Assembly (NCBI GenBank): GCA_016191115.1
Contig: JACPPG010000055.1
Span: forward strand, 25,018-89,017
Length of the DNA: 64,000 nt
Source: Planctomycetia bacterium
GTDB taxonomy: Bacteria; Planctomycetota; Planctomycetia; Pirellulales; JACPPG01
Reading direction: 5' to 3'
Positions within the stretch are counted from its first letter, which is position 1. Each line of letters starts with the position of its first letter. The position numbers and the translations under genes were made by a program. Of the stretch, positions 2,878-21,260 are shown in pieces. The notes under the pieces were generated by a model, which saw only the letters and a list, made by a program, of their open reading frames with translations, was not told the origin of the DNA and ran no database searches.

Positions 2878-3603
2878 TCATCGCGGCCGTTGGTAGGCGA
2901 TCTCGCGGAGCAGCTCTCGCTGCTCGCGGACATCCTCTGCTACGTCAATGGCGAGCTGGATGAGTTCGGCAATAGCAAAGCAGGATACGGCCCACGCCGC
3001 TCCAAAGAACAGCCCTATTCCGACTAGCTGCGCATCGGGTCTGCGCCCTTCGAGCAACGGATACGCCACAAATACAAGTAACGTCACAATGACCACCAGC
3101 GTCGCCGATATGCGGAAAATTGAAGCAACGATGTGCAGCGCGCGAAACCGTGGGCTTCGCTGTCGCGCGACGGTGGCGACGCGGCTGGCGTCACTCGTAT
3201 CGGCTGTCGATTTATTTGAGACAGGGCCTTCATGGGCTTGGCCGACTGCTACTGGCGCTGGCCCACGGTTCGTGCGATCGCGTTCGCTTCCAGGCAATGG
3301 CGGTGGTAGGGACGGCTTGCCGTCCAGGGCCGGCGCGACCGCCATGACCGCCGATCGTTTGGCGTCGTTGACCTGCGGTTTGGCCGGCACGACCGCTGCC
3401 GATATCTCGTGGGCTGCGATCGGCTGAGTAGCCTTGACGACTAAACCCTGCACCTGCGACGCGCTGACCCATTTGCCTTCGGCGCTCCTGCGGATCAACG
3501 TGTCCGGGCCGATGGTCCCCCTCTCAGCTTTTGCCTTGAGTTCGGCAGCCGACACCGGTCCGACCATTTCGCCCATGACTTGGAAATACCACTCGCTGGC
3601 CAT
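2878..3603 (-). CDS. GYF_2 (DUF4339)-type domain membrane protein
   Basis: The N-terminus WYFQVMGEMVGPVSAAELKAKAERGTIGPDTLIRRSAEGKWVSASQVQGL matches the GYF_2 pattern (W-Y/F..x..GP.s..eL......G.i..dtlvw..g...W..a..v..L). The C-terminal part has two hydrophobic helices (ATLVVIVTLLVFVAYPLL, GIGLFFGAAWAVSCFAIAELI). Confidence 0.7.
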   Translation of the reverse strand: MASEWYFQVMGEMVGPVSAAELKAKAERGTIGPDTLIRRSAEGKWVSASQVQGLVVKATQPIAAHEISAAVVPAKPQVNDAKRSAVMAVAPALDGKPSLPPPLPGSERDRTNRGPAPVAVGQAHEGPVSNKSTADTSDASRVATVARQRSPRFRALHIVASIFRISATLVVIVTLLVFVAYPLLEGRRPDAQLVGIGLFFGAAWAVSCFAIAELIQLAIDVAEDVREQRELLREIAYQRPR

Positions 3604-4598: not shown

Positions 4599-4618
4599 CT
4601 GTATTGTCCTGTATTGTC
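4599..4618 (+). repeat. perfect tandem 10-bp direct repeat CTGTATTGTC x2, possible operator
   Basis: CTGTATTGTC at 4599-4608 and again at 4609-4618, read directly. It lies between the candidate promoter and the first ATG (4692) of the operon. Confidence 0.9.
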
Positions 4619-4691
4619 AGGCGGGCTCATTCAGATCGCGGGACGCAGCGATGCGATAGTGGACGACGCGGGCCGACTCCCAACGGAGAGC

Positions 4692-6065
4692 ATGATGGGC
4701 CAGGGGATGAATCGCTCTTCGATTCCCATTCAGTTGCGCGTCACGTGCCCGCATTGCTGGAGCCGCTTTGCGGCCGAAGACGCGCTATGGATTTCGCAGC
4801 ATCCGGACCTTGTTGGCGATCCGCGTCTTGGGACCGATCAGCAGCAGCGATTCCTTCCCACACGCTTCACCGTCGAAGGTGCAGCGATCGACTCCCGCGG
4901 GTTTGCCTGCCACGGATTGGCCTGTCCCAAGTGTCACCTGACCGTGCCTCGGGCGCTCTTCGAGATGGAGCCTCTCTTCATCTCGATTCTGGGCGCGCCC
5001 TCGTGCGGCAAGTCGTACTTTCTTGCCGCCATGTCGTGGCAGCTCCGCAAGACGCTCCCACACTCGTTCTGTATGGCCTTCAGCGACGCCGACCCGGCCA
5101 TGAACCATTACCTCAACGAGTACGAAGAGATTCAGTTCCTCAACCCGAATCAGGACCAGCTCGTCGCCATACGCAAGACCGAAGAGCAAGGCGACCTGTA
5201 CGACACCGTTTTGTACGGCGAGCAGGCGATCCGCTTCCCGCGCCCGTTCATCTTCGCGCTCCGTCCGTTGGAAGGTCACGTGAATTACGGTTCGTCAGCG
5301 CGAATCTCCAAGGGACTCGCGCTCTACGACAATGCGGGCGAAAGCTTCCTGCCGGGCAGCGACACCGCGGCCAGCCCTGTCACGCGACACCTGGCCCTCT
5401 CCCGTGCGCTGATGTTCCTGTTCGATCCGACGCAGGACCGCAGGTTCCGCGAAGCGTGCCGTGGCAAGACAGACGACCCGCAAATGCAGGAGCGATCCGC
5501 CCGGCTTGACCGCGAGCGGCCCGTTCGCCAGGACACGATTCTGCTGGAGGCAGCCGATCGCGTTCGCCGCTATGCCGGGCTGGCCCAAGCGGCCAAGCAC
5601 TCGCGACCCTTGATCGTTGTGGTGACCAAATACGACTGCTGGGCGTCGCTATTGGACAATGAACCGCTCGACGATCCGTGGGTACAAGGCAAACGCCGAC
5701 CCTCATGTGCTCTGGACAAGGAAGTGATTCAGGAGCGATCGCAAAAGCTTCGCAAAGTGCTCTGGCAACTGACGCCCGAAATCGTCGCCGCGGCCGAGGG
5801 GTTTGCTCAGCAGGTGATCTACATCCCAGTCAGCGCCATCGGACGCAGCCCCGAGAGCGACCCGCAAACCGGCGCGCTCGGTATCCGGCCGCGCGACATT
5901 CATCCCCGCTGGGCCGAAGTGCCGCTTCTGTACTTCCTGGCTCATTGGTGTGAGGGAATGATCCCCTACCGCAAGCCGAAGACGCACCGCATTGGGCCTG
6001 ACGATGACAACGACACGGGCACGGTGCCCTTCGGTGCGGCACGGAATCGCCGAGAGACGGCGTGA
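4692..6065 (+). CDS. zinc-ribbon + P-loop GTPase (TRAFAC-like), operon gene A
   Basis: CPHC (4746-4757) and CPKC (4923-4934) form a ribbon. G1/Walker A is GAPSCGKS (4992-5015), G3 is DNAG in LYDNAGE (5328-5339), G4 is TKYD in VVVTKYD (5625-5636), and there is a G5-like PVSAIG. No TM segment. Start is uncertain: TTG 4614, or ATG 4692/4695/4707. Confidence 0.8.
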   Translation: MMGQGMNRSSIPIQLRVTCPHCWSRFAAEDALWISQHPDLVGDPRLGTDQQQRFLPTRFTVEGAAIDSRGFACHGLACPKCHLTVPRALFEMEPLFISILGAPSCGKSYFLAAMSWQLRKTLPHSFCMAFSDADPAMNHYLNEYEEIQFLNPNQDQLVAIRKTEEQGDLYDTVLYGEQAIRFPRPFIFALRPLEGHVNYGSSARISKGLALYDNAGESFLPGSDTAASPVTRHLALSRALMFLFDPTQDRRFREACRGKTDDPQMQERSARLDRERPVRQDTILLEAADRVRRYAGLAQAAKHSRPLIVVVTKYDCWASLLDNEPLDDPWVQGKRRPSCALDKEVIQERSQKLRKVLWQLTPEIVAAAEGFAQQVIYIPVSAIGRSPESDPQTGALGIRPRDIHPRWAEVPLLYFLAHWCEGMIPYRKPKTHRIGPDDDNDTGTVPFGAARNRRETA

Positions 6066-9000
6066 CGATGATCCAGGAAATCTACTACACGTCCGCCCCC
6101 CGCGGTCTAAAGGCTGGCAGCCGAGGGTTCTGCACGGTCGTCAGCACGGCGGGCATGGCCAAGAACCTGGCCGACCGGCTGGAATCGCTTAGCGGATACC
6201 GTCACCTCTTCGGCCCGCAGGACCCGCAGGCGCCGCTGAATCCGGTCGTCTACTCGCACCTGCGGCTGGCAGTGGGAGGACGGCAGTACCACGTCCTCTC
6301 GCGCATCTGCGACGCGGGGCTCGACTATACGCAGCGGACCAACAAGTTTGCTCACCATGTCGTCCTAGATACTGCTGATCTGCCGGCCGGAGGTCCCGCG
6401 TGGCTCTTGTCCTTGCCCGGCTTCGTGCAGGCGACGTGGGACGGCGAGACCCGCACGCTGCCGGGCGGCCGGCGTCCGCCGTCGGGCGACGCACAGGCCG
6501 GAGTGTGCCGCGCTTGGCAACAATTGACCGGCGATGCCGGGTGGGGAGGGGCGCTTGCGGAAACAGCGCTGCCTGGATCGAACCGTCGGGCGGTCGTGGT
6601 CTTCGCACCAGGCATGGACATGTTGCAGTTGGTTGCCGAGGCCCTCGCCCTTCTATCGCCGGAGCAGCGCTGGGAGGTCACGTTCTCCACATATTTCACG
6701 AAGCTGCCGCCGGGCATCGATTGCAAATGGCGGTTCGTGGTCGAAGGTTCGCCGGAGGCCGCTGCCGCCCGGCCGACGCCACAAACGCTGGTCATCAACC
6801 TCTGCTCCAAGCAATCCGCCCCAGCGGCTAGCGCGCTAGCGGTGGCGGCCAGAACGGGCGTTGCACCGAAGTTGTCGGCCGCTCCGGTTTCCGGGTTTCC
6901 CGGCGACGAGCATCCAATGCCTGCCGAGCTTGGCGGCGATACCATCGACGAAGCCGATGAACTCGGGCTTGCGCTACGGCCAGGCGAGAGCCGTAGCGTT
7001 CGTGCACCGGCTGCGGCCAATGTCGGATCGGCGGGCAGTCGCGGGTATGACGTGGGACCCCCGCCGCTGCCGGGCGTGCAACTGGATCGGCTTGGCGCGC
7101 CAACTTCGCGACGCCGATTCGAGAAAAAAAGACCGTGGGGCCTCATTACCGCAGTCGTTGCCCTCTTCGCGGCGGTGGCTGGTGCCGGAATCACGGGTGC
7201 CGTGCTCCTCAGCAAAGGGGCACCTGAGCTTACGAGAAGCAATGAACAGGCCACTCCGGCATCCGCCGGACGTGGAACGCCGAAGGGCGCAGACGTTACG
7301 GACATTGTTCTCACGATTACACCGGTCGCAACACCGATTAACGCTGCCAACGCGATCGGCGCGTCGGCAAGCGGCACAGCCGAGCCTGGCGCCAGCGTCA
7401 GTGTCACGTGCACCGACGACGCAAATCAAAAGACCGACCCCTGCGTCGCGACGGCCGACTCATCTGGCAAATGGACCGCAACCGCTATCGATCTAAGGAG
7501 CCTCAAGGACGGTATGATCACTTTCACCGCTGCTGCTAAAAATGCAGCCGGAAACACTGCTCAGACTAGCGCGACCGCGACCAAGGACGCCGCAGCCCCG
7601 ACAATCTCCATCGCGCCGCTCGCACATCCGATCAATAGGGAGAATGCCGCAAGTGTGTCAGTAAGCGGCACGGCCGAGGCAAACGCAAGTATTTCGTTGA
7701 TAGCCACCGACACCGCAAGTCACAAGAGCGGGCCAAGCACTACTATGGTGGACTCGTCGGGCAAGTGGCACGTGGCCAACGTTAATCTGAACAGTCTCGA
7801 CGACGGGAAGATCACCTTCATGGCTACGGCCGCCGATGCCGCTGGAAACAAGAAGGCGGACAGCATTGAAGCGACCAAGGACACCACACTCCCAACCGTC
7901 GAGATCGCCACGGTTACAACAATCATCAGCGCAGCAAATGCCAAGAACGCGGCCGCTTCCGGCACAACGGAGCCGGGCGCAAGCATCACGATCGTGGCCA
8001 GTGACAGCGAAAATGCACAAAGCCCAATGCGCACGGCGACCGTCGACTCAGGCAACTGGTCAGTGGATGGCATCGACGTGAGCAGTCTCGCCGATGGCGA
8101 AATCAGTTTCGCGGCTACGGCCACAGATAGTGCCGGAAACCATGCCACCGCGACGCGCGCGGTTAAAAAGGCGGGCAATCCGTTCGTTGGTCTACCCGAT
8201 GCTCTTCCGATTCCTCCTTTCGCGAGCAAGAATGACTGTCAAATCCACAACGTCATGGTCTCAGAGAGTCAATTGTCATTGACCATTGATGGTCAAGGGA
8301 TCGTTCAAGATCGGCTAAGCATCTATTGCAAGCGCGACTCACACACAGAGCGCCCGACATGGGGTGTGTACTTTTCTGGGAAAGAAGGAAATGTGGGCGT
8401 GCTTGGTGATGACCCAACCAGAATTGCTCGTTTTGTATTAGACGCAGGAACGCTGAGCTTCTCTTGGGACGCCCGCGTCACGCCCGAGTTCGATTTGCGG
8501 AATTGCGTTCTGATTCTGAGCAGCGAGGGGAACACCTATCCCCTACAACTTCGGTCGGCGGAGTCAAGGTCGGCGCTTTCTGTCCAAAATCTGAAGGATG
8601 ACAACGTCGCTGCGGAAATTGCGCTCGATTCCATGCCGCCCTTTCAGCGGCTAAGGATTCGAGTCAATGGCGTTCGATCGAATGCCAGTGAGCCACTTCA
8701 GGGGCAGACGAAGTCGACAGCGCGGCCGGATCGGGCCGCGGTGGTGGTTCGTTACTCGCTGCAAGACGTACTACAGACGGTTGACGGTATTCGTGCCGCT
8801 CCTCCACCGAAGGAACTGAGACCGCAGACACGCGACGCTTTTGCAGATCGGCTCATGGATGAAATCCGCAAATCCTTCGCCGAGTATGAGCAGTCGGTTG
8901 TGCTGCTCCTGGAACTAGGGCAGGCAAAGAACCGACCGTCGGTTGTTCAGGTGAGGATGCGTTTTGGCAAGGTCACGGGTCGGGCTGTCGATGCCATTTC

Positions 9001-9322
9001 GGACGAAACTATTGACCAGATGTCCAACATCGGTTTTCAGCGGTTACAACCACAAGAAATTAACAAAAGGGCCGGTGCGTTGGCGAGTGAGGTGCTCGGC
9101 GCAGTGCTGAGAATCGATCAGGAAGCAAAAACACGGGACAAATTGCCGGTTTTTCATGACGCGCTTCTAAAAAAAGCGGCCCGCGGTGTGCATGCGCATG
9201 CGCTCCTCGTACTCGTCGACAAGCTCATTGCCTCGCTGGTCGACTATGAGGTGTACATGCCTTTCGAGGAATCGAAGAGTCGCGTGGTATTGGTCCGAAG
9301 CGACGTGAAGAGTGAGTTGTAA
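6062..9322 (+). CDS. bitopic membrane protein: GAP1-N-like cytoplasmic domain, TM, 3 Ig-like repeats, unknown C-terminal domain (operon gene B)
   Basis: The GTG start overlaps the gene A stop (GTGA); an alternative ATG is at 6068. The N-terminus MTMIQEIYYTSAPRGLKAGSRGFCTVVSTAGM follows the (Q)xxYTS..GL..G..GF....S.G opening I associate with GTPase-associated protein 1 N-domains. Next come a Pro/Ala linker, one TM (RPWGLITAVVALFAAVAGAGITGAVLLS, ~7129-7212), three ~96-aa repeats and a ~380-aa C-terminal region. Confidence 0.8.
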   Translation: MTMIQEIYYTSAPRGLKAGSRGFCTVVSTAGMAKNLADRLESLSGYRHLFGPQDPQAPLNPVVYSHLRLAVGGRQYHVLSRICDAGLDYTQRTNKFAHHVVLDTADLPAGGPAWLLSLPGFVQATWDGETRTLPGGRRPPSGDAQAGVCRAWQQLTGDAGWGGALAETALPGSNRRAVVVFAPGMDMLQLVAEALALLSPEQRWEVTFSTYFTKLPPGIDCKWRFVVEGSPEAAAARPTPQTLVINLCSKQSAPAASALAVAARTGVAPKLSAAPVSGFPGDEHPMPAELGGDTIDEADELGLALRPGESRSVRAPAAANVGSAGSRGYDVGPPPLPGVQLDRLGAPTSRRRFEKKRPWGLITAVVALFAAVAGAGITGAVLLSKGAPELTRSNEQATPASAGRGTPKGADVTDIVLTITPVATPINAANAIGASASGTAEPGASVSVTCTDDANQKTDPCVATADSSGKWTATAIDLRSLKDGMITFTAAAKNAAGNTAQTSATATKDAAAPTISIAPLAHPINRENAASVSVSGTAEANASISLIATDTASHKSGPSTTMVDSSGKWHVANVNLNSLDDGKITFMATAADAAGNKKADSIEATKDTTLPTVEIATVTTIISAANAKNAAASGTTEPGASITIVASDSENAQSPMRTATVDSGNWSVDGIDVSSLADGEISFAATATDSAGNHATATRAVKKAGNPFVGLPDALPIPPFASKNDCQIHNVMVSESQLSLTIDGQGIVQDRLSIYCKRDSHTERPTWGVYFSGKEGNVGVLGDDPTRIARFVLDAGTLSFSWDARVTPEFDLRNCVLILSSEGNTYPLQLRSAESRSALSVQNLKDDNVAAEIALDSMPPFQRLRIRVNGVRSNASEPLQGQTKSTARPDRAAVVVRYSLQDVLQTVDGIRAAPPPKELRPQTRDAFADRLMDEIRKSFAEYEQSVVLLLELGQAKNRPSVVQVRMRFGKVTGRAVDAISDETIDQMSNIGFQRLQPQEINKRAGALASEVLGAVLRIDQEAKTRDKLPVFHDALLKKAARGVHAHALLVLVDKLIASLVDYEVYMPFEESKSRVVLVRSDVKSEL
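7316..8182 (+). repeat. three tandem ~96-aa Ig-like coding repeats inside gene B
   Basis: Units at 7316-7603, 7604-7897 and 7898-8182. Shared pattern: I.....PI...NA...s.SGTAEpgAS.......d.........t..aDSSGkW......l.SL.DG.ItF.A.A.DaAGN.a....a.KD...PT. Confidence 0.85.
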
Positions 9323-9325
9323 GCG

Positions 9326-12283
9326 ATGCTCGACCATCAAAGAATTGTTGACGACATCCGCAGCGCCATGTACTCGGTGACGCCCGAGTCGTTGGACATG
9401 CTGCGCTTGGCCGTCGCAGATTATTCGGTCGCATGTGATGAGACGAACGAGCGGTTGCGGCAATGCAATTCGCTCCTCAAGCAGGGACTGCGGAGTGAGG
9501 CGATCCAGGCGTGCGAGGTCGAGCCGAACCTGCTCGACGTAGTGGCAACGCTTGACTTTGCTGAGCGCGACCAACTGGTGGCTATTACCCAGCAAAATGG
9601 CCTCGCGGTTCCGCCAGGATTGTCGATGGAGGTGGCGTCGGAACTCAATGAGGCGTACGCGATCCAGGCGCCCCTCGAATCGCTGTTGCGTCAGCACCGT
9701 CTGCTGGCAATCGCGCGCGGGCCGCTGGCCCCGAGGCTCAAGACGCTGCGGTCGATCGCGCGTCTCGACAAGCACAACTTCGTCTGGCAGGACGATGTCC
9801 GGCTCTTTGAAAAGGAACGTCTCAAGGAGATTCAGCGCGAGGCGAATCAGGCGGCAAAGGCGGGCGAAGTGGCCGTGCTCGACTCTCTGGCCGAGGAGTT
9901 GGCCGACAAGCAGTGGCAGCAAAAACCTCCGAAGGAGCTAGTCCAGGGAGTCGGTGAAATCGCGCATAGGGTCCGCCACAAGCAGACACGCAAGGAGCTT
10001 GAGGAGTTGGAGCCCGCGCTCAACAGCGCCTTTGCTGCATTCGATGTCGAGGAGGGGCGACGCTTGCGCGGGCGATGGAACGAATGCGTCGAGATTCTCC
10101 CACTCGAAGGCGACCCGCTCGCCGACCGTGTCGCGCCGGCGCTCGACTGGCTGCGCGAACAAGACGAGCAGGAAGAGCGATTGGGGAATCATGAGGCGTG
10201 CGTGGGCGCTTTGGAGTTTGCGCTTGATCGCCATGACCACACCATCGCCGAGCTGGAGCGCTTGTACCATGCGGCCGTGCGTCACGGCCACGATCTGTCG
10301 TCGTTCCTGGAGCGGCGCTATCAGGCCAAGATCAAGGGGTTGGAGTTTGCGGCGCGGCGGCGATCGGTGCTCATCATCACGTCGGTAGTGAGTGTCGTTG
10401 TGCTAGTCGCCGGCGTGCTGGCTGCAATGGCCTGGATGCATCACCGCTCCAATGAACTCGCCGGTCACGTGGCCGCGCTCTCTCAGTTGATTACCGACGG
10501 GAAGCTGCACGAATCGCAAAAGTACGCCGACGAATTGACTCAGTCGTCACCGCGGATCGCACACAGCCCAGAAATCGAGAAACTGGTGGTTCGACTCGAC
10601 GAGGATGTGAAGAAGGAACAGTCGCGGCAAGAGCAGTTCCAGCATGCGATTGCGCGGGTGAAGGCCGCCGGTTTTGACGAGCCGGATCACGATGCCCTGA
10701 AACGCGCCGAAGAGTCGGCTAAGACTCCGGCGGAGCGCACCGAGGTGGCCGAAGCGAAGGAGAGCATCGCCAAAGCGTTGCGAGAGAGGCAGGCAGAACG
10801 GGACAAGGCATTTTTGGCGGACATTGACGGCCTGGCCGACAAGGTCAAACAACTGGAAGGGGAGTTAGAGAAGTCCGGCGCGGACGATGATGCAGCGAGC
10901 GTGCAGCACTTTGCTCAGCTTCGAGCCGAGCTATCGGCGTTGAACGCCCGCGGGGAGCTGGTGACGCCGGCGGTGCGAAATCAGTTGAAACCATTGTCGA
11001 CGCGCCTGTCGGCATTGGAGGAAATGGTTTCACGCCATGCGAAGGCACAGGCGGCGCTCAATCAACTGATGAAGGCTGTTGGCGACCCCCAGGCGTACCA
11101 GATGGCCCTGCAAGATTACGTCAAACAACATCCCGAAAGTCCCCACGCCGCGTCCTTTCAGCATGTGAGCGCCGAAGCGCCGTTGTGGGAAGGCATGCAA
11201 CGGTGGGATGCTTTCGCCGTTGACTTGGGAAAAGCGGCCCGCGACGGCCTGACGCCCGCCGAAGGGAAAACGCTTCAAGACGGGGCTGACAAGCTGTTGA
11301 AGGAACTCGGCCAGTTTCCGCAGGCCGGGACGCTGCGAACCGCGCTTCCGCATCTGAAATCCGTTGTCGCCCGAATCGGCAGCGACGGCCCGCTCCACAA
11401 GCCGCTTGTGACGCTCTTCAACGATCGGCTGATTCATAACGTTCAGATGATTGAACACAAGGACGGAAGGCGCTGGTACACGGACAAGGAGCCAAGTGTT
11501 CGCGCGGACGGCGTGGACATCGAATTCCTGGCCGGGTTCGACTACTCGCATAAGCACAAGCCTCTTACATCTGGTGAAATCGCCAGTCGAGATCGAGCGC
11601 CGCAAGCGGTCGTCGCCGACAAGGTTCTTGCGGAACTCGGAAAGCTGGACGCAGCCACGCGCGAGGGAGAGTGGGAGCAGCACTTCGCCAACATCTTGGT
11701 TGCAATTTGCGAAGAACAGCGCATGGAACCGATCCTCAAGATTGCCCTGTTGAAGCGAGTAGTCCCAGTCGCCTGCGAGGGGTCCGACGTGTTGCGCTTG
11801 GCGCTGGCGAAACATCAGGAGGCACTGGAAGGCTCGGCCGTCAACGCGCTAGCGCCTTGGATGCTGCCGGAGTTTCCGGAGAAGGACAAAGATGCCAGGA
11901 AGGCCGTCCTTGAAGAGCGAGGACGCGCCAAGGGCGAACTGGAGGCCCTCGCCGACCTGCCCACTACTGTTCAGGTCGCGGCGAAAAAGCCCCCGCCCGT
12001 TCTCCGGCTGAACGAATATCGGTGGATCGGTCTGCTGGTCAAAGACTCCAAGGGCGGATGGACATGCATGATCCGTCCTAATGCTACGACCTCTCCAGGT
12101 GCCTTGTATGTCGTCGAGCAGCCAGCGGGACAGAAGCCCGTGAACATCTCGCCTATCGGCCACCTCGAAGACGGGAAGCCGCACCTTGATTCATTCAAGC
12201 CGGCCCTCCTCATGGAAGGGCGTCCGATCTATTTGCTGATGACTGCCGGCAAGGACCAGCAGGCCGCAGCGGTTCATCGATAG
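9326..12283 (+). CDS. 985-aa all-helical bitopic membrane protein with extensive coiled coil (operon gene C)
   Basis: ATG lies 3 nt after the gene B stop. About 345 aa of helical cytoplasmic region, then a positive-inside TM (ARRRSVLIITSVVSVVVLVAGVLAAMAWM), then ~600 aa with charged heptad-like stretches (EDVKKEQSRQEQFQHAIARVKAA, ADKVKQLEGELEKSG...). No enzymatic motif seen. Confidence 0.75.
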   Translation: MLDHQRIVDDIRSAMYSVTPESLDMLRLAVADYSVACDETNERLRQCNSLLKQGLRSEAIQACEVEPNLLDVVATLDFAERDQLVAITQQNGLAVPPGLSMEVASELNEAYAIQAPLESLLRQHRLLAIARGPLAPRLKTLRSIARLDKHNFVWQDDVRLFEKERLKEIQREANQAAKAGEVAVLDSLAEELADKQWQQKPPKELVQGVGEIAHRVRHKQTRKELEELEPALNSAFAAFDVEEGRRLRGRWNECVEILPLEGDPLADRVAPALDWLREQDEQEERLGNHEACVGALEFALDRHDHTIAELERLYHAAVRHGHDLSSFLERRYQAKIKGLEFAARRRSVLIITSVVSVVVLVAGVLAAMAWMHHRSNELAGHVAALSQLITDGKLHESQKYADELTQSSPRIAHSPEIEKLVVRLDEDVKKEQSRQEQFQHAIARVKAAGFDEPDHDALKRAEESAKTPAERTEVAEAKESIAKALRERQAERDKAFLADIDGLADKVKQLEGELEKSGADDDAASVQHFAQLRAELSALNARGELVTPAVRNQLKPLSTRLSALEEMVSRHAKAQAALNQLMKAVGDPQAYQMALQDYVKQHPESPHAASFQHVSAEAPLWEGMQRWDAFAVDLGKAARDGLTPAEGKTLQDGADKLLKELGQFPQAGTLRTALPHLKSVVARIGSDGPLHKPLVTLFNDRLIHNVQMIEHKDGRRWYTDKEPSVRADGVDIEFLAGFDYSHKHKPLTSGEIASRDRAPQAVVADKVLAELGKLDAATREGEWEQHFANILVAICEEQRMEPILKIALLKRVVPVACEGSDVLRLALAKHQEALEGSAVNALAPWMLPEFPEKDKDARKAVLEERGRAKGELEALADLPTTVQVAAKKPPPVLRLNEYRWIGLLVKDSKGGWTCMIRPNATTSPGALYVVEQPAGQKPVNISPIGHLEDGKPHLDSFKPALLMEGRPIYLLMTAGKDQQAAAVHR

Positions 12284-12306
12284 TGCGCAACGCAGGATCG
12301 ATCAAA

Positions 12307-13212
12307 ATGGCAGACCAGTTGTACATTCGGGTTCGCGGCCGCGTGCTCGGCCCGTACGATCGAGACAAGCTCCAATCGCTGGTCAAGCGCGGCCAACTTG
12401 GGCGCCTTCACGAGGTCTCTGAGGACGGCGTCGCTTGGGTGCGGGCAACGAACTTCCCTGAGATATTCGTGATGCCCTCGGTCGCGGTAGCCGGCCCCTC
12501 GGTGAAGGCACCACCCGCTGCCAGTGAAGTCCCTGGGTACGCGATCGAGCCAGACACGTCCGCGGCGGCTCCGACGGGCCAGACCTGGTACTACACGAGC
12601 GGCGGTGCCCAGCTTGGGCCAGTCGATTTCGCGTTTCTGCAAAAGCTGGCTGCGACGGGTCAACTTGGTCCATCCAATTTGGTGTGGACCGAAGGCATGG
12701 CCGAGTGGGCCGCACCTGGCGCCGTGCCCGGCTTGAACGCGCCGCCCGCCACGGGCCGGTCTGCTACGGCTAACGTTGCCACCGAGTCAGGGAACGCCGT
12801 CACGCCTGGTGTGTGTCGGGCGCTCGCCGGATCGCGGCGCTGGATTCTCTTTCTCGCCATCGTGACGTTTGTCTACTGCGGATTCTATGCCGTCTTGGGG
12901 GTCTGGGCGGTCGTATTCGGCTTTTCGTCGGACATTGCGGCTATCGTAGGTGAGGGTCTCTTCTTCCTCTCGACCGCTGCGGTCGGTGCCGCTGCCGGAG
13001 TGCTGCTGCTCTTCTATGCCAATCGGATTGGGGTCCTACAGTTCCGCCGCGATTTCCAGCAGTTGGAATCGACGCTTGAGGCGGCGCGCTGGTTTTGGGT
13101 ATATGCGGGCATCATCCAGATTGCCTTCCTGATATTCCTGTCGGCGTTGAGCGTCTGGGCGATGGCCGTCGGCGGCGCAACGGTGCGGGCGAGCGCCCGA
13201 TCGCTGTTCTGA
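12307..13212 (+). CDS. double GYF_2-domain polytopic membrane protein (operon gene D)
   Basis: ATG at 12307; the track ORF starts at a GTG at 12283 overlapping the gene C stop. Two GYF_2-like modules (LYIRVRGRVLGPYDRDKLQSLVKRGQLGRLHEVSEDGVAWVRATNF and TWYYTSGGAQLGPVDFAFLQKLAATGQLGPSNLVWTEGMAEWAAPGAVPGL) are followed by ~4 hydrophobic helices. Confidence 0.75.
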   Translation: MADQLYIRVRGRVLGPYDRDKLQSLVKRGQLGRLHEVSEDGVAWVRATNFPEIFVMPSVAVAGPSVKAPPAASEVPGYAIEPDTSAAAPTGQTWYYTSGGAQLGPVDFAFLQKLAATGQLGPSNLVWTEGMAEWAAPGAVPGLNAPPATGRSATANVATESGNAVTPGVCRALAGSRRWILFLAIVTFVYCGFYAVLGVWAVVFGFSSDIAAIVGEGLFFLSTAAVGAAAGVLLLFYANRIGVLQFRRDFQQLESTLEAARWFWVYAGIIQIAFLIFLSALSVWAMAVGGATVRASARSLF

Positions 13213-13236
13213 GGGATCGTTCGGAGCTAGCGCACA

Positions 13237-14103
13237 ATGCCTCAGGATGCAACGCCCCCGAACAACGACGTACCACTCGCCTGGGCACGTGGCGACATCG
13301 AGCAGCGCCTTGGCTTCCACGGCGGGCGCTATACGCGCGTCAATACGCTGCTTTCGTTTCTGATTGGTGCTGGATTGACGGTCCTATTTTTCGGCGCCTT
13401 GTTCCCCTTCCGAGGAACGAACGTTGCCGCGACCTTCATGGACCGAGGGCCGACACCTTACGTGACCATGCTGCTGGCGTGGTGGTCGGTGGCGATCCTG
13501 TTCTTGAAGTCGCGCAAGCTCGCGTTTCAGCAACGGGCGCTGGCGTACCAGGTTGTGCCGGAGAGTCACGATTTCGTGCTGTCCGCCGCGACCGCCGACC
13601 AGGTGCTGGAGCGAATCTACGCCACGGTAGACGACCCGAAGAAGTTCGTGCTCTTTAACCGAATCGTCATTGCGCTCTCGAACTTGAGGAACCTCGGCCG
13701 GGTGTCCGACGTGGACGACATCCTCCGTTCGCAGGGGGACGGTGAAGAATCGTCGATGGAGACCAGCTATTCGATCGTGCAGGGGTTTGTTTGGGCGATC
13801 CCGGTGCTGGGCTTCATTGGCACGGTATTGGGCTTGTCCGAAGCCATCGGGGCATTCGCGAGTGTGCTTGGTTCGGCATCGGAGGTGTCGGAAATCGCGG
13901 GTGCATTGCGCGGCGTCACCGCCGGCCTCTATACCGCCTTCGACACGACGCTCGTGGCGCTTGTTGCCGCGCTCATCATTCAGATCGTTCTCACGTTCTT
14001 GAAAAAAAACGAAGAGGAATTCCTTGATGCTTGCGCGGAGTATTGCGTCCGCAACGTGGTTGGGCGTTTGCGGGTGATGCCCTTCGAGACTGAGGTGGAA
14101 TAG
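13237..14103 (+). CDS. MotA/TolQ/ExbB-family proton channel subunit (operon gene E)
   Basis: Four predicted TMs. The C-terminal half, FVWAIPVLGFIGTVLGLSEAIGAF...LRGVTAGLYTAFDTTLVALVAALIIQIVLTFL, matches the conserved GxxGTVxGxxxAF ... TTxxGLxVA core of MotA_ExbB proteins. Confidence 0.85.
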   Translation: MPQDATPPNNDVPLAWARGDIEQRLGFHGGRYTRVNTLLSFLIGAGLTVLFFGALFPFRGTNVAATFMDRGPTPYVTMLLAWWSVAILFLKSRKLAFQQRALAYQVVPESHDFVLSAATADQVLERIYATVDDPKKFVLFNRIVIALSNLRNLGRVSDVDDILRSQGDGEESSMETSYSIVQGFVWAIPVLGFIGTVLGLSEAIGAFASVLGSASEVSEIAGALRGVTAGLYTAFDTTLVALVAALIIQIVLTFLKKNEEEFLDACAEYCVRNVVGRLRVMPFETEVE

Positions 14104-14105
14104 AA

Positions 14106-14927
14106 ATGGCCAGACGCCACCGATCCTCGCCCTTCTCGCTATTCAGCTTTCAGGACATCATCACGTCCGTCACTGGCATCATCATCCTTCTGACGCTCAT
14201 CTTGGCCTTGGAGCTGGTGACTCGCAAACCGTCTGCACAGGGGGGCAGCTCTCCTGACAATTCCGAACAGTTGAGGGAAAGCATCGCGGAAGCCGCCGCA
14301 GAGAGCGCGCAGCTCGAAGAAGCGCTTGAGAAGCGAACTGCTAGGGTGCAAGAACTGGCGGCCGCCTCTCCACAGCAGCTTGCCCGCGAGAAACGCGACG
14401 TTGAACAGGAAGTACAGCGTCTTGAAGCGGAGGTCCAGCAACTCGTGCGGCAGGCAGAAACCACCTCGCGCGAGAAAAAAGAGGCCGTCGCAAAAAGTGA
14501 GGATCGCGAACTCGACCGTAAGGAACTGAAGCAGCGTGAGGCGACATTGCGATCCTTGGCCGAAAAACTCAAGGACTTGAAGCGCAAAGATCACCTCATC
14601 TACAACCTCAGTCGCGACGCGGGGAAGCGGGCTTGGCTGGTCGATGTCTCGCCAGACAAGTTGGCCGCGGCGCCGCTCGGTGAGGCAGTGCCACCTACTG
14701 TATTTGAGGAGTCGTCGGCTTTCGCGCGGGCTCGCTCGTTCATCGATTTCACCAAGCGGCGAGACCCAAAGACCGAGTATTTTGTCTTCCTTATCAGACC
14801 GGCTGCCGTCGAGACGTTTGCCGACATTCGCTTGAAGCTTGAGGGTTCGGGCTTTGATATCGGGTTTGATGTTATCGGTTCGGGCCAGACCGTTCTTGAC
14901 CCAAAGACGGGGGCTTCGATCCGATGA
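14106..14927 (+). CDS. ExbD/TolR-like single-pass subunit with long coiled-coil insert (operon gene F)
   Basis: Basic N-terminus MARRHR, then FSLFSFQD(17)IITSVTGIIILLTLILAL, with the Asp preceding the TM as in ExbD D25/TolR D23. About 130 aa of coiled coil follow (QLEEALEKRTARVQELAA...VQRLEAEVQQLVRQ). The C-terminal YFVFLIRPAAVETFADIRLKLEGSGFDIGFDVI resembles the ExbD periplasmic beta-alpha-beta unit. Confidence 0.65.
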   Translation: MARRHRSSPFSLFSFQDIITSVTGIIILLTLILALELVTRKPSAQGGSSPDNSEQLRESIAEAAAESAQLEEALEKRTARVQELAAASPQQLAREKRDVEQEVQRLEAEVQQLVRQAETTSREKKEAVAKSEDRELDRKELKQREATLRSLAEKLKDLKRKDHLIYNLSRDAGKRAWLVDVSPDKLAAAPLGEAVPPTVFEESSAFARARSFIDFTKRRDPKTEYFVFLIRPAAVETFADIRLKLEGSGFDIGFDVIGSGQTVLDPKTGASIR

Positions 14928-15835
14928 GTAGACGCAAGCGCCAACCCGAAAGCAGTCTGGAGCTGCTGCTGGACACGATTTGCAACACGTTCGGTGGCAT
15001 CCTCTTCTTGTCGATCTTGATCGTCGTCCTGTTGCAGATGACGGGCGGTGCACGATCGAAGACGGCCGAGCCGACCTTGTCGGCTGCTGAGTTGGCGGAT
15101 TTGCGTCGGCAGCACGCCGAGGCACTCCGGCATTTGGAGACAGTGCAGGCTGCGATTGACAAGCAGCGAGACCTGCTCGACCAGTTCGCGACTGCGGAGA
15201 ATGTGGACCTGCTCCGGGAGCTGCAAGCCCTGGAGCAAACGCGGGAGTCGCTGCGGTCGCACCGTGCGGCGACCATCTCCCAAATCGCCGAAGCACAGGC
15301 CAGCGTCGATGCCGTTGAGAGTGACCTCGCCGAACTTGACCAGCATCAGAAGGAACTGGAGCAGCAAGTCGCCGTCGCCGAACGATTGCTTCAGGCCGAG
15401 GTTGCGTCTCGGACCACCGCAGCCCGCCTGCCTCGTCAGCACGCTACCGGGAAACAAGAAGTCGGGGTCTTGGTCCGTTACGGCCGGCTGTACCTTTGGC
15501 ACAAATACGATTCCCACGGGCTTCGGCTCGGTCTTAATTTCGACGACATGGTGGTCGTCAAAGAACATGGGACGCGACTGGAAACTGCGCCGAAGCCGTT
15601 TGCCGGCGTGGTCTTGGAGAAGGGAGTCGACGCCGAGCGACGAATCCGGGAGAAGCTCTCCGGCTTCGATCCACGCACGATGTATGTAGCAGTGGTCATT
15701 TGGGAAGACTCGTTTGCGCAGTTCCAGATTCTAAAGAACGTGCTGGTCGAGCGCGGATTAGAGTATCGTCTCATGCCGACCGAAGAAGGCACCGAGATCA
15801 GCGACCACGGCGGCACCGGCAGCCGCGTCCAGTGA
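14924..15835 (+). CDS. second ExbD/TolR-like single-pass subunit with coiled-coil insert, paralog of gene F (operon gene G)
   Basis: ATGA overlap with gene F. MSRRKR...SLELLLD(17)TICNTFGGILFLSILIVVLLQM, then coiled coil (LRHLETVQAAIDKQRDLLDQ...ELDQHQKELEQQVAVAERLLQ). The C-terminal MYVAVVIWEDSFAQFQILKNVLVERGLEYRLMP is ExbD-like. Confidence 0.65.
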   Translation: MSRRKRQPESSLELLLDTICNTFGGILFLSILIVVLLQMTGGARSKTAEPTLSAAELADLRRQHAEALRHLETVQAAIDKQRDLLDQFATAENVDLLRELQALEQTRESLRSHRAATISQIAEAQASVDAVESDLAELDQHQKELEQQVAVAERLLQAEVASRTTAARLPRQHATGKQEVGVLVRYGRLYLWHKYDSHGLRLGLNFDDMVVVKEHGTRLETAPKPFAGVVLEKGVDAERRIREKLSGFDPRTMYVAVVIWEDSFAQFQILKNVLVERGLEYRLMPTEEGTEISDHGGTGSRVQ

Positions 15836-15950
15836 CGGGAACGCGATTCGGGAAGGCGAGGACGCCCTCAAAGCCGAAGGGCACAAAAACGCCAAGCAAG
15901 AGGCCCGCCGGATCGAAGCCGAGCCGCTGGACACGGCCTACCTGGACCAG

Positions 15951-16178
15951 TTGGCGATCCGCGACCACAACCGGCAAGCCGCCAAGGAAGCGGCTGCGGA
16001 GGCTCGGCGGACGTACCGGCCACTCTCACCGCGGGAGCAATTGGAAATGCTGATGCTCGCCCAGCCGATCGGCAGCCCAGAGCGGGCCGCGCTTCAAAGG
16101 CAACTTGACCGGATGGCGAAAAAGAAGCCCCCGAAGGATCGGCCCAGGGCATCCGTCCACGCTGCCGCTCGCCGTTAG
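15951..16178 (+). CDS. hypothetical charged helical peptide (doubtful)
   Basis: 75-aa ORF from TTG. The same frame is open from 15762 and reads as plausible protein (…DALKAEGHKNAKQEARRIEAEPLDTAYLDQLAIRDHNRQAAKE…), but no ATG/GTG/TTG occurs before 15951. Confidence 0.2.
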   Translation: MAIRDHNRQAAKEAAAEARRTYRPLSPREQLEMLMLAQPIGSPERAALQRQLDRMAKKKPPKDRPRASVHAAARR

Positions 16179-19960: not shown

Positions 19961-20680
19961 CTACTTCTTTCGCCGCAGGCGGGCGACGCCGAGAAGGCCC
20001 AATCCGAGACCAAACAGCGTCACCGTGGCCGGCTCGGGAATCGGCGGCGCGGGAGACTGCACGAAGGTCTGCGTGAAGAACGACATCGTCGGCACGCCCC
20101 CGTGCTCGCCGGCCGAGAACGCCAGGATGTCCTTCTGCACGTGCAACGTGCGGAAACCGTGGGCAAACGTTATGGCGTCGGTCGGCTTGGTAAGGCCAGG
20201 CTTGATGTCGAAAATCGACAGGGAATGCGCATCGTCGGGTAGGAACGTCTCGGTGAGGCTGATGGCCCCGTCACCTCCGAGCACCGCGGGATTGCCCGAC
20301 AACGTGGCGCCGGTGATGACCTTGTCGTCGTTCATGACCGTGACCGTGAAGTCCAAGAGCGCGTCGGAGCCGCCGCCACCGATGAAGTCCAAAAAGGCGC
20401 CCTGGAACAGCAGGCCGAAGTTGCCGGCGCCGTCCGTGTACGGCACGACATTGACGGCCGAGGCGTCGGGCATGTCGCCGGTCTTGAGGTACGAGAAATC
20501 GCTAAAGAGCTTGTCGCCGACTTGCATTGTGCCGTGCTCGCCTATGAGCGTCGACAAGGCGGCGGCCTTGACTGGCGCCGCGAGCACGGCCACAGCGAGT
20601 GCCGCGGCAAACGCCGATGCACCGCCTCGCGCCCACCAAGACGTGCGTGACACTTGATGTTTGATCTGCTGGCTGTCCAT
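19961..20680 (-). CDS. PEP-CTERM sorting-domain secreted protein
   Basis: The C-terminus PIPEPATVTLFGLGLGLLGVARLRRKK is a PEP motif plus TM plus basic tail. The N-terminal signal is WWARGGASAFAAALAVAVLAAPVKA. Start taken at ATG 20680; the track ORF starts at 20734. Confidence 0.8.
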   Translation of the reverse strand: MDSQQIKHQVSRTSWWARGGASAFAAALAVAVLAAPVKAAALSTLIGEHGTMQVGDKLFSDFSYLKTGDMPDASAVNVVPYTDGAGNFGLLFQGAFLDFIGGGGSDALLDFTVTVMNDDKVITGATLSGNPAVLGGDGAISLTETFLPDDAHSLSIFDIKPGLTKPTDAITFAHGFRTLHVQKDILAFSAGEHGGVPTMSFFTQTFVQSPAPPIPEPATVTLFGLGLGLLGVARLRRKK

Positions 20681-21260
20681 CCGAGTCCCCTGTGTCGAAA
20701 GTCGGTTTTCCGCGTCGTTTGTTGGCTTCGTCAAAGTTGCGTGGACGGTTGCTTTGCTTGAGTCCGTGCGATCGTGGGCCGCGTGCTGGCGATATGCCGC
20801 ATGGGATGCGACGCATCGCGAGATCGCGGGAACGAATCGGTAGGCCGGCGTTTCGAAAGTGCTGGGCGGCTGCTTCGGCGCGTGCGGTGCGGCGTAAGAA
20901 GCGCGCAGGTCGCAAGCCGCGGGTCAACCCAGTGGGACGAGTGCCGGATGAGAGTCGCTAGATGGCGTTCGAGCTGGAATCACCGCTGCGCCGACAAAAT
21001 CGGCGCGCTCTCGGAACGCTCAACTCTCACTCACCTGACATTAGCAGCACTCAAATAGATAGATTGGGGAACACATTGCCGCCCGACTTATGCTTCCCAC
21101 CTATATTAACAACGACGCAACCATATTGGACCACCTATTTTTACAGATTTATCCAAATATTCTGAATTATCGAGATTGGGGCCCAGAGCGCAACTGTTCC
21201 TCTGCCACGGATTCGGACGTAACTCTCTTGGATATCGACAGATAAGATAAATGGCGCTGA

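Follow-up and report, generated by a model that had tools for sequence, protein, structure and literature searches.

The question raised by this locus is whether a ring protein of the MotA/ExbB family and the two membrane proteins encoded behind it make up an ion-driven motor in which two different proteins share the place of the usual small subunit. The locus lies in a 64-kb stretch of a Planctomycetia metagenome-assembled genome (MAG), referred to below as the window, where three genes, here termed E, F and G, occupy positions 13237-15835, all on the plus strand. The open reading frames (ORFs) were confirmed as E (13237..14103, 288 amino acids), F (14106..14927, 273 amino acids) and G (14924..15835, 303 amino acids); the stop codon of E lies 2 nt ahead of the ATG of F, and the TGA of F overlaps the ATG of G by 4 nt (ATGA). 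F and G are identical to NCBI HYX69_17895 and HYX69_17900, respectively, both of which are annotated as hypothetical. The three are the last genes of a conserved seven-gene operon, which encodes a DO-GTPase-like protein, a GAP1-N2 protein, a 985-amino-acid protein, a GYF/transmembrane (TM) protein, E, F and G in this order. Ion-driven motors of the 5:2 type form few families, namely MotAB, ExbBD, TolQR, GldLM, ZorAB and AglRQS. From the sequence comparisons given below, E, F and G probably form a variant of these small rotary motors, which drive flagella and nutrient uptake, with a connection to an envelope complex controlled by a GTPase. We place at somewhat better than even the chance that they form a proton-driven 5:2-type motor with an F-G shaft, as the energising module of a trans-envelope complex.

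The assignment of E is the firmest part of this argument. Residues 155-263 (13699-14025) match Pfam MotA_ExbB (PF01618; E-value 4.7e-11, 43 bits against a cut-off of 22.9), which bears out the preliminary description of this stretch, where E had been taken for a MotA/ExbB-like channel carrying the C-terminal core of the family, and PF01618 is carried by 120/120 E homologs among the matches listed. A profile built from 35 E sequences reached TolQ in the PDB only at an E-value of about 0.8, and a profile-sequence comparison with E. coli TolQ by hhalign gave an E-value of 1.8e-5 over 109 columns. This alignment pairs GFIGT196VLGL of E with GLFGT145VWGI of TolQ, and TAFDTT238 with ALIAT178. Both E threonines, T196 (13822-13824) and T238 (13948-13950), are invariant among the 35 homologs and are thus aligned to TolQ T145 and T178, the pore threonines which in known motors face the Asp of the small subunit (PMC12204202). 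Hydropathy analysis of E gave strong segments at residues 38-56, 180-198 and 237-255 and a weaker stretch at about 74-91, and since four Arg residues precede the first segment, E probably has a MotA-like topology with four TM segments and the N-terminus inside. Judged by its sequence, E is a channel of the MotA/ExbB family, a divergent yet typical ring subunit which is far from every solved motor. Identity among homologs is far tighter for E (63-88%) than for F (30-57%) and G (35-63%). In E, residues 92-175 (13510-13761), taken to form a cytoplasmic loop, are nearly invariant across homologs (P108, F113, P134, N141, R142, N149, N152, G154, D160 and others), which suggests a conserved cytoplasmic partner.

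F and G are both bitopic proteins with an Arg-rich N-terminus (MARRHR in F, MSRRKR in G), for which reason they are assigned an N-in orientation. Each has a sole hydrophobic segment (F 18-36, G 19-37), and an Asp at position 17 (14154-14156 in F, 14972-14974 in G) stands at its cytoplasmic edge, just before the segment as had been proposed; in the AlphaFold2 (AF2) models the same residue falls within the predicted TM helix, which spans residues 14-39 of F (14145-14222) and 11-41 of G (14954-15046). When its conservation was checked, Asp17 was found to be invariant in 54/54 F homologs and 57/57 G homologs, as well as in 82/82 F and 82/82 G ORFs of the loci compared below. Around it each family keeps residues of its own, L12, F13, F15, Q16, D17 and I18 being invariant in the 54 F homologs, and S11, L15, L16, D17, N21, G24, G25 and F28 in the 57 G homologs. 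Among the proteins of the operon, an acidic residue at a TM helix was noticed in F and G only. The similar openings of the two proteins had led to the proposal that they are paralogs, and the direct alignments agree with it: BLASTP of F against G gave an E-value of 2e-4 over the N-terminal 161 amino acids, and profile-profile hhalign gave a probability of 98.4% and an E-value of 6e-15 over 258 columns, C-domains included. Going by these alignments, F and G are true paralogs along their whole length, and since the homology runs end to end, the shared Asp17 would be inherited and not coincidental. In both paralogs the helix face of Asp17 has polar and small residues at i+3/i+4 and i+7 from it, namely N21 (14984-14986) and G24-G25 (14993-14998) in G, and T20, S21 (14163-14168) and G24 (14175-14177) in F; N21 of G is invariant within the membrane helix, where proteobacterial ExbD/TolR have plain hydrophobic residues. 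The precomputed annotation of F gives the Pfam accession PF28019.1, which is carried by no other F homolog among those listed.

What follows the membrane helix was modelled with AF2 on the alignments of F and G homologs (mean predicted local distance difference test score, pLDDT, 80.5 for F and 84.5 for G; 88-97 in the C-domain of F). Long helices were predicted at residues 50-84 and 89-160 of F and 54-87 and 91-163 of G, and these make up the heptad-periodic regions at 14253-14585 and 15083-15412. The alignment-averaged hydropathy of the helices has a period peaking at 3.4-3.55 residues, and the periodicity power observed was reached by 0/2000 shuffles for each of F 89-160, G 91-163 and F 50-160; periodicity was weaker in G 54-87, the shorter helix, and in G 54-163, where the helices are joined, 33/2000 and 43/2000 shuffles, respectively, reaching the observed values. 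In the models, therefore, the rods of F and G are coiled-coil-like and about 110-125 residues long, so that the coiled-coil insert proposed in the preliminary description stands as to its nature, by its periodicity, and is somewhat shorter than the 130-150 amino acids given there. Each rod leads to a C-terminal α/β domain, predicted at residues 175-256 of F (14628-14873) and 178-286 of G (15455-15781). That of F has the order βββαβαβ; that of G, also α/β, is larger and has additional strands at its N-terminal side. Both end in a predicted β-α-β unit (F 224-230/232-247/251-256; G 253-260/267-277/280-286), as had been claimed, while the ExbD likeness ascribed to this unit gained no statistical support. 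When the F head was searched with Foldseek, RNase-H-like folds led the matches (integrase cores, YqgF, the C-terminal half of UvrC, uS11; E-values 1.6e-3 to 1e-2), and in topology the modelled C-domains of both proteins look RNase-H-like.

Kinship of F and G with the known small subunits was looked for by profile comparison, and here the results weigh against their being the small subunits of the E ring. Neither F nor G matched PF02472, MotB or OmpA in Pfam at an E-value of up to 1, and the list of the 25 families matched most often by the 54 F and 57 G homologs at an E-value of up to 10 included none of these. A joint profile of the F and G N-termini found no ExbD, TolR, MotB or ZorB among PDB sequences; the profile of the F C-domain found no small subunit there and gave marginal matches only (RNase HII, E-value 0.1). 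Comparison of F and G parts by hhalign with an alignment of 17 ExbD/TolR sequences (the E. coli sequences and 15 plasmid-borne genes) gave probabilities below 1%. On the structural side, E. coli TolR (5by4) came up for F at rank 41 with a marginal E-value of 1.6e-2 and a TM-score of 0.45 on the TolR length, and for G the best Foldseek E-value was 5.5e-2, neither TolR nor ExbD being among the first 50 matches. Finally, two loci (L051, 9977-11703; L082, 9998-11769) have F-G without E within 10 kb upstream. Single-sequence searches and full-length F and G profiles returned nothing from the PDB except coiled-coil noise. The best alignment of F to ExbD lies in the topologically equivalent register (F 173-251 against ExbD 60-128) and is statistically non-significant, and a PADLOC model of ZorB1 matched the TM region of F weakly (E-value 0.013). 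Because all the profile tests failed, F and G were not filed under ExbD/TolR, and the claim that they are ExbD/TolR-like, for which the lack of profile similarity had been named beforehand as the refuting test, is not supported. Nor does Pfam support a MotB/OmpA-like stator subunit, as neither F nor G matched the OmpA or MotB family.

These same results are what could be expected if F and G were bitopic coiled-coil scaffolds or force transducers of the kind of TolA/TonB or FtsB/FtsL, bound next to the E ring or at another site, with Asp17 serving helix-helix contacts. A TM segment followed by a long helix and a small C-terminal domain is indeed closer to the plan of TolA than to that of ExbD, and the loci L051 and L082 tell that F-G can occur away from E; in both, the GTPase and GAP1 genes are also missing within 10 kb upstream, Asp17 is kept in both proteins, and in L082 the rods of F and G alike are longer and the flanking genes look like housekeeping genes. 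However, the helices of TolA and TonB have a conserved His within an SHLS motif, and not an Asp (PMC12204202), and a protein encoded beside a MotA/ExbB gene whose single TM helix bears an invariant carboxylate at its cytoplasmic end shows the hallmark of a small subunit. Moreover, no other candidate for that role was found in the operon or the loci, and phmmer searches with E. coli ExbD and TolR found none among all ORFs of the window and the 82 loci. We therefore regard the scaffold explanation as very unlikely. Identity of F or G with TolA/TonB itself was also judged unlikely, the TM residue being Asp rather than His. As far as the sequences tell, F and G resemble a small subunit by gene position, N-in orientation, single helix and buried, invariant carboxylate, and not by family membership. 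Since their TM Asp is invariant, their N-termini lie inside, their genes come directly after E and no other candidate was found, we consider with good confidence that F and G are small motor subunits.

If so, it has to be asked whether they act together or apart. F and G were found adjacent and on one strand in 81/81 loci where both were found (82 loci), and the start of G overlaps the stop of F by 4 or 1 nt in 52/81 of them. Their predicted helix boundaries coincide (50-84/89-160 against 54-87/91-163). The distance from Asp17 to the head co-varies between F and G in 79 genomes (Pearson 0.79, reached in 0/5000 permutations), and large changes of this spacer are matched (F/G 134/137, 144/153, 169/182, 177/186 and 182/192). 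Strict tandem pairing, translational coupling, co-varying rod lengths, coinciding helix boundaries and the invariant motifs of each family together make an F-G heterodimer plausible. Against it we have to count that the Spearman coefficient of the spacer co-variation is only 0.27, the correlation resting on few non-independent lineages, that several F insertions are unmatched in G (172/174, 171/174), and that a pair of separate homodimers spanning one periplasm would have to match in length as well. On balance we hold the chance that F and G act as one F-G heterodimer to be about even.

The arrangement to be weighed against the F-G pair is that of two alternative homodimeric motors, in which E pentamers would combine with F2 in one stator type and with G2 in another, the two differing in their periplasmic heads, as in bacteria whose one ring family serves alternative small subunits. 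In favour of this arrangement it counts that the small subunits of solved 5:2 motors are homodimers (MotAB, ExbBD, TolQR, GldLM). It would also agree with each paralog keeping its own Asp and full domain set, with the different size and loops of the two C-domains, and with those F rod insertions that have no match in G. It accounts less well for the observations that in 81 loci neither F nor G was ever single and most of the pairs are translationally coupled, that the large indels of the rods are matched between them, and that the family-specific invariant motifs around Asp17 suggest fixed and non-equivalent roles. Taken together, we consider alternative F2 and G2 motors unlikely.

Under the favoured reading of a motor with an F-G shaft, E would form a pentameric ring, as its family membership and conserved pore threonines suggest, and F and G would each put one Asp17 helix into this ring, in place of the homodimer of ExbD, TolR or MotB. 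Their periplasmic parts would pair as a two-stranded coiled-coil shaft, which we estimate from about 110 helical residues at about 15 nm if fully extended, and the pair of α/β heads at its tip may hold or pull a partner in the periplasm or outer envelope. Protons passing via the two Asp residues would turn the ring relative to the shaft. Assembly or activity may be controlled by the DO-GTPase-like switch together with the GAP1-N2 protein, and the GYF-domain membrane proteins may act as adaptors, such that the E loop 92-175, the GTPase-GAP1 pair and the GYF adaptors would together gate or localise the motor, in parallel with the control of AglRQS by MglA and GltJ in Myxococcus.

The genes upstream of E supply the proteins to which these regulatory roles are ascribed. 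The first gene of the operon (4614..6065, plus strand, as are all that follow) encodes the DO-GTPase-like protein of 483 amino acids, with the P-loop GAPSCGKS and an N-terminal zinc-ribbon-like CxxC. It scored 22.5 bits against Pfam DO-GTPase2 (PF19993), under the cut-off of 27, and it is encoded just 5' of the GAP1 gene; the orthologs in Bremerella and Schlesneria match PF19993 equally weakly. The gene was found in 28/39 loci having the full upstream flank. The GAP1-N2 protein (6062..9322, 1086 amino acids) comprises GAP1-N2 (E-value 1.1e-28) and GAP1-M (1.6e-16), both over the Pfam cut-off, a PPPLP motif, one TM segment, three Ig-like repeats (Big_13, E-value 4e-16) and a C-terminal region. 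It is followed by the protein of 985 amino acids (9326..12283), which has one TM segment and coiled-coil-rich stretches and is conserved among loci; it gave no family match in Pfam and other profile scans, and its orthologs hold the same operon position in most loci. The GYF/TM protein (12283..13212, 309 amino acids) has two GYF_2 domains (Pfam E-value 4e-23, two stretches) and a TM-rich C-terminus, and fits the planctomycete component in which a GYF pair is fused to a TM-rich region (PMC7159879). The PPPLP motif of the GAP1-N2 protein (residues 333-337, 7058-7072) lies between GAP1-M and the TM segment, and 16/35 GAP1 orthologs have a similar proline motif in a comparable place. By analogy with the proline-rich segment of AglZ for GltJ, it could be a candidate ligand of the GYF domains of the operon. 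A second GYF_2 protein with a hydrophobic C-terminus (Pfam E-value 4.1e-13) is encoded just upstream of the operon, in divergent orientation on the minus strand (2878-3603). Further downstream in the window, an ORF at 19961-20734 (minus strand) terminates in a PEP-CTERM-like sorting signal, PEPATVTLFGLGLGLLGVARLRRKK.

The distribution of these genes was examined in a species scan with one genome per species, from which the loci kept for comparison were all from Planctomycetota (80). F is encoded in at least 235 genomes, and the G profile matched 777 clusters at 50% identity with an E-value of up to 1e-30, nearly all of about 300 amino acids. Bremerella sp. P1 and Schlesneria have all seven genes in unchanged order. 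E was found in 49/51 loci with at least 4.2 kb upstream, and all five upstream genes in 27/39 loci with the full flank, most of the others being short of upstream genes because inserted genes push the first ones out of range. F lies directly 3' of E in 42/68 loci; otherwise GYF-TM genes stand between, and in these 26/68 loci 0.7-3.2 kb separates E from F. The inserts examined encode GYF-TM-vWA and GYF-TM-trypsin proteins, a protein with a squalene-hopene-cyclase-like domain and a GYF-TM protein whose C-terminal domain is unassigned; inserted genes are found at 8399-9712 in L021, 8681-9970 in L048, 8567-9952 in L043, 3028-4575 in L015, 6818-8689 in L004, 6660-7910 and 7951-9939 in L018, and 8892-9836 in L033. 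The inserts between E and F thus make up the variable part of a system whose core is constant. The text of a paper on essential genes of Planctopirus makes no mention of the operon, and the MotA/TolQ/ExbB genes in its supplement could not be mapped to it.

A constant core with variable GYF-TM proteins (trypsin, vWA, cyclase-like) between E and F in 26/68 loci could also be the mark of a conflict or defence system, in which the motor would sense envelope damage as ZorAB does and trigger effectors; this would be compatible with either motor model. GAP1-N2/DO-GTPase systems have been interpreted as conflict systems (PMC7159879), and the G+C content of the operon region (window 6001-16000; 57-64%) is slightly below that of most of the remaining window (63-69%), which would suit such a role. 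On the other hand, no PADLOC system matches the operon, ZorA being matched weakly in its MotA core only (E-value 1e-4) with no ZorC or ZorD, and no nuclease-type effector is present. The order of the core genes is fixed in isolates and MAGs of Pirellulales and Planctomycetales alike, and the identity of 63-88% among E homologs fits a housekeeping machine better than a defence island of patchy occurrence. We regard a defence role as possible, though doubtful. Equally tentative is our proposal of a planctomycete-specific, GTPase-gated and proton-driven trans-envelope machine with an F-G shaft, a counterpart of Agl-Glt serving a core envelope process rather than defence; under it the motor could function in remodelling of the periplasm or outer membrane, in uptake of macromolecules or in budding.

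If the assignment of F and G is true, a large family would be added to the 5:2 motors, with small subunits that have no detectable sequence kinship to the known ones. As an obligate pair of paralogs with their own periplasm-spanning rod, F and G would offer a natural test of a heteromeric axle in a five-fold ring, and a proton motor would be tied to GAP1-N2/DO-GTPase systems. The planctomycete envelope has few known machines, and a conserved energised complex would offer a concrete aim to genetic work in Planctopirus, Gimesia or Bremerella, of interest to the fields of 5:2 motors and planctomycete cell biology alike. Our literature search turned up neither the F/G family nor its coiled-coil design nor the link to GAP1-N2/DO-GTPase. 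A ring with a heterologous pair of Asp helices which carry their own transducer is a concept already known, from AglRQS and from the TPH-vWA (trans-pore helix-vWA) proteins, and it is with these and the other motors that the trio has to be compared.

With ExbB-ExbD, and likewise with TolQ-TolR, the trio has in common the ring family, the pair of pore threonines and a small-subunit gene directly downstream, and F and G are like ExbD and TolR in their N-in single TM helix with an Asp at its cytoplasmic end. They differ in being of double length, with about 110 helical residues inserted, and in being without the N-[IV]-x-P-[LF]-x-D motif; TolQ and ExbB, furthermore, have three TM segments, whereas E, by hydropathy and charge, probably has four. 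GldLM/PorLM is likewise a 5:2 motor in which a dimer of small subunits forms a long periplasm-spanning shaft (reviewed in PMC9389320). GldM, however, forms a homodimer and has Ig-like domains and a TM Arg, GldL being the subunit that bears the protonatable residue, and no sequence relation was seen. In Zorya ZorAB, too, a MotA-like ring serves outside motility and bears a long coiled-coil extension; there the long tail is cytoplasmic and belongs to ZorA, while the rods described here would be periplasmic and belong to the small subunits. Membership in Zorya was rejected, E having 288 amino acids without a tail, PADLOC matching only the shared core (E-value 1e-4) and no other Zorya protein being present in the operon. 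As for the upstream genes, the operon has GAP1-N2 together with GAP1-M, and the GYF-pair/TM variant, as in the GAP1-N2 systems described by Kaur et al. (PMC7159879), among them planctomycete ones in which trypsin or TM regions are joined to a GYF pair; MotA, ExbB and TolQ are absent from the text and one supplement of that paper.

The TPH-vWA proteins carry an Asp-bearing trans-pore helix, occur mostly as heterologous pairs beside TolQ-like genes that have no tolR/exbD partner, and have been proposed to rotate inside the pentamer and so pass force directly (PMC12204202). Shared with the trio are the lack of an ExbD/TolR gene and the presence of two proteins, each with an Asp trans-pore helix and a periplasmic part that is not ExbD. 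The two systems differ in that vWA is found there, while F and G have a coiled coil and a small βββαβαβ domain, in the phylum, and in the linkage of the F-G pair to a GTPase/GAP1-N2 operon. No vWA match was found by Pfam in F or G, nor among the families listed for their homologs; in the planctomycete system vWA sits on separate GYF-TM proteins. The gene plan of the trio matches that of AglRQS of Myxococcus xanthus, with which F and G are compared here by gene plan alone and which likewise has one TolQ-like ring gene and two differing small-subunit genes. AglQ and AglS differ from F and G in being short and TolR-like with no coiled-coil rod, the switch there is MglA/MglB and here a DO-GTPase-like protein with a GAP1-N2 partner, and the Glt outer-membrane genes are not present here. 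The GYF protein of the operon matched the GltJ model via its GYF domain only (24.5 bits against a cut-off of 450). In Myxococcus the ZnR/GYF region of GltJ couples to MglA, and MglA-GTP and GltJ control the AglRQS motor; a membrane protein bearing a GYF domain and a switch GTPase are thus partners of that motor as well (PMC11135422). AglR5-AglQ-AglS has been modelled with a heterodimeric plug (PMC11761067), and the analogy with AglQ/AglS drawn in the preliminary description is therefore an apt one.

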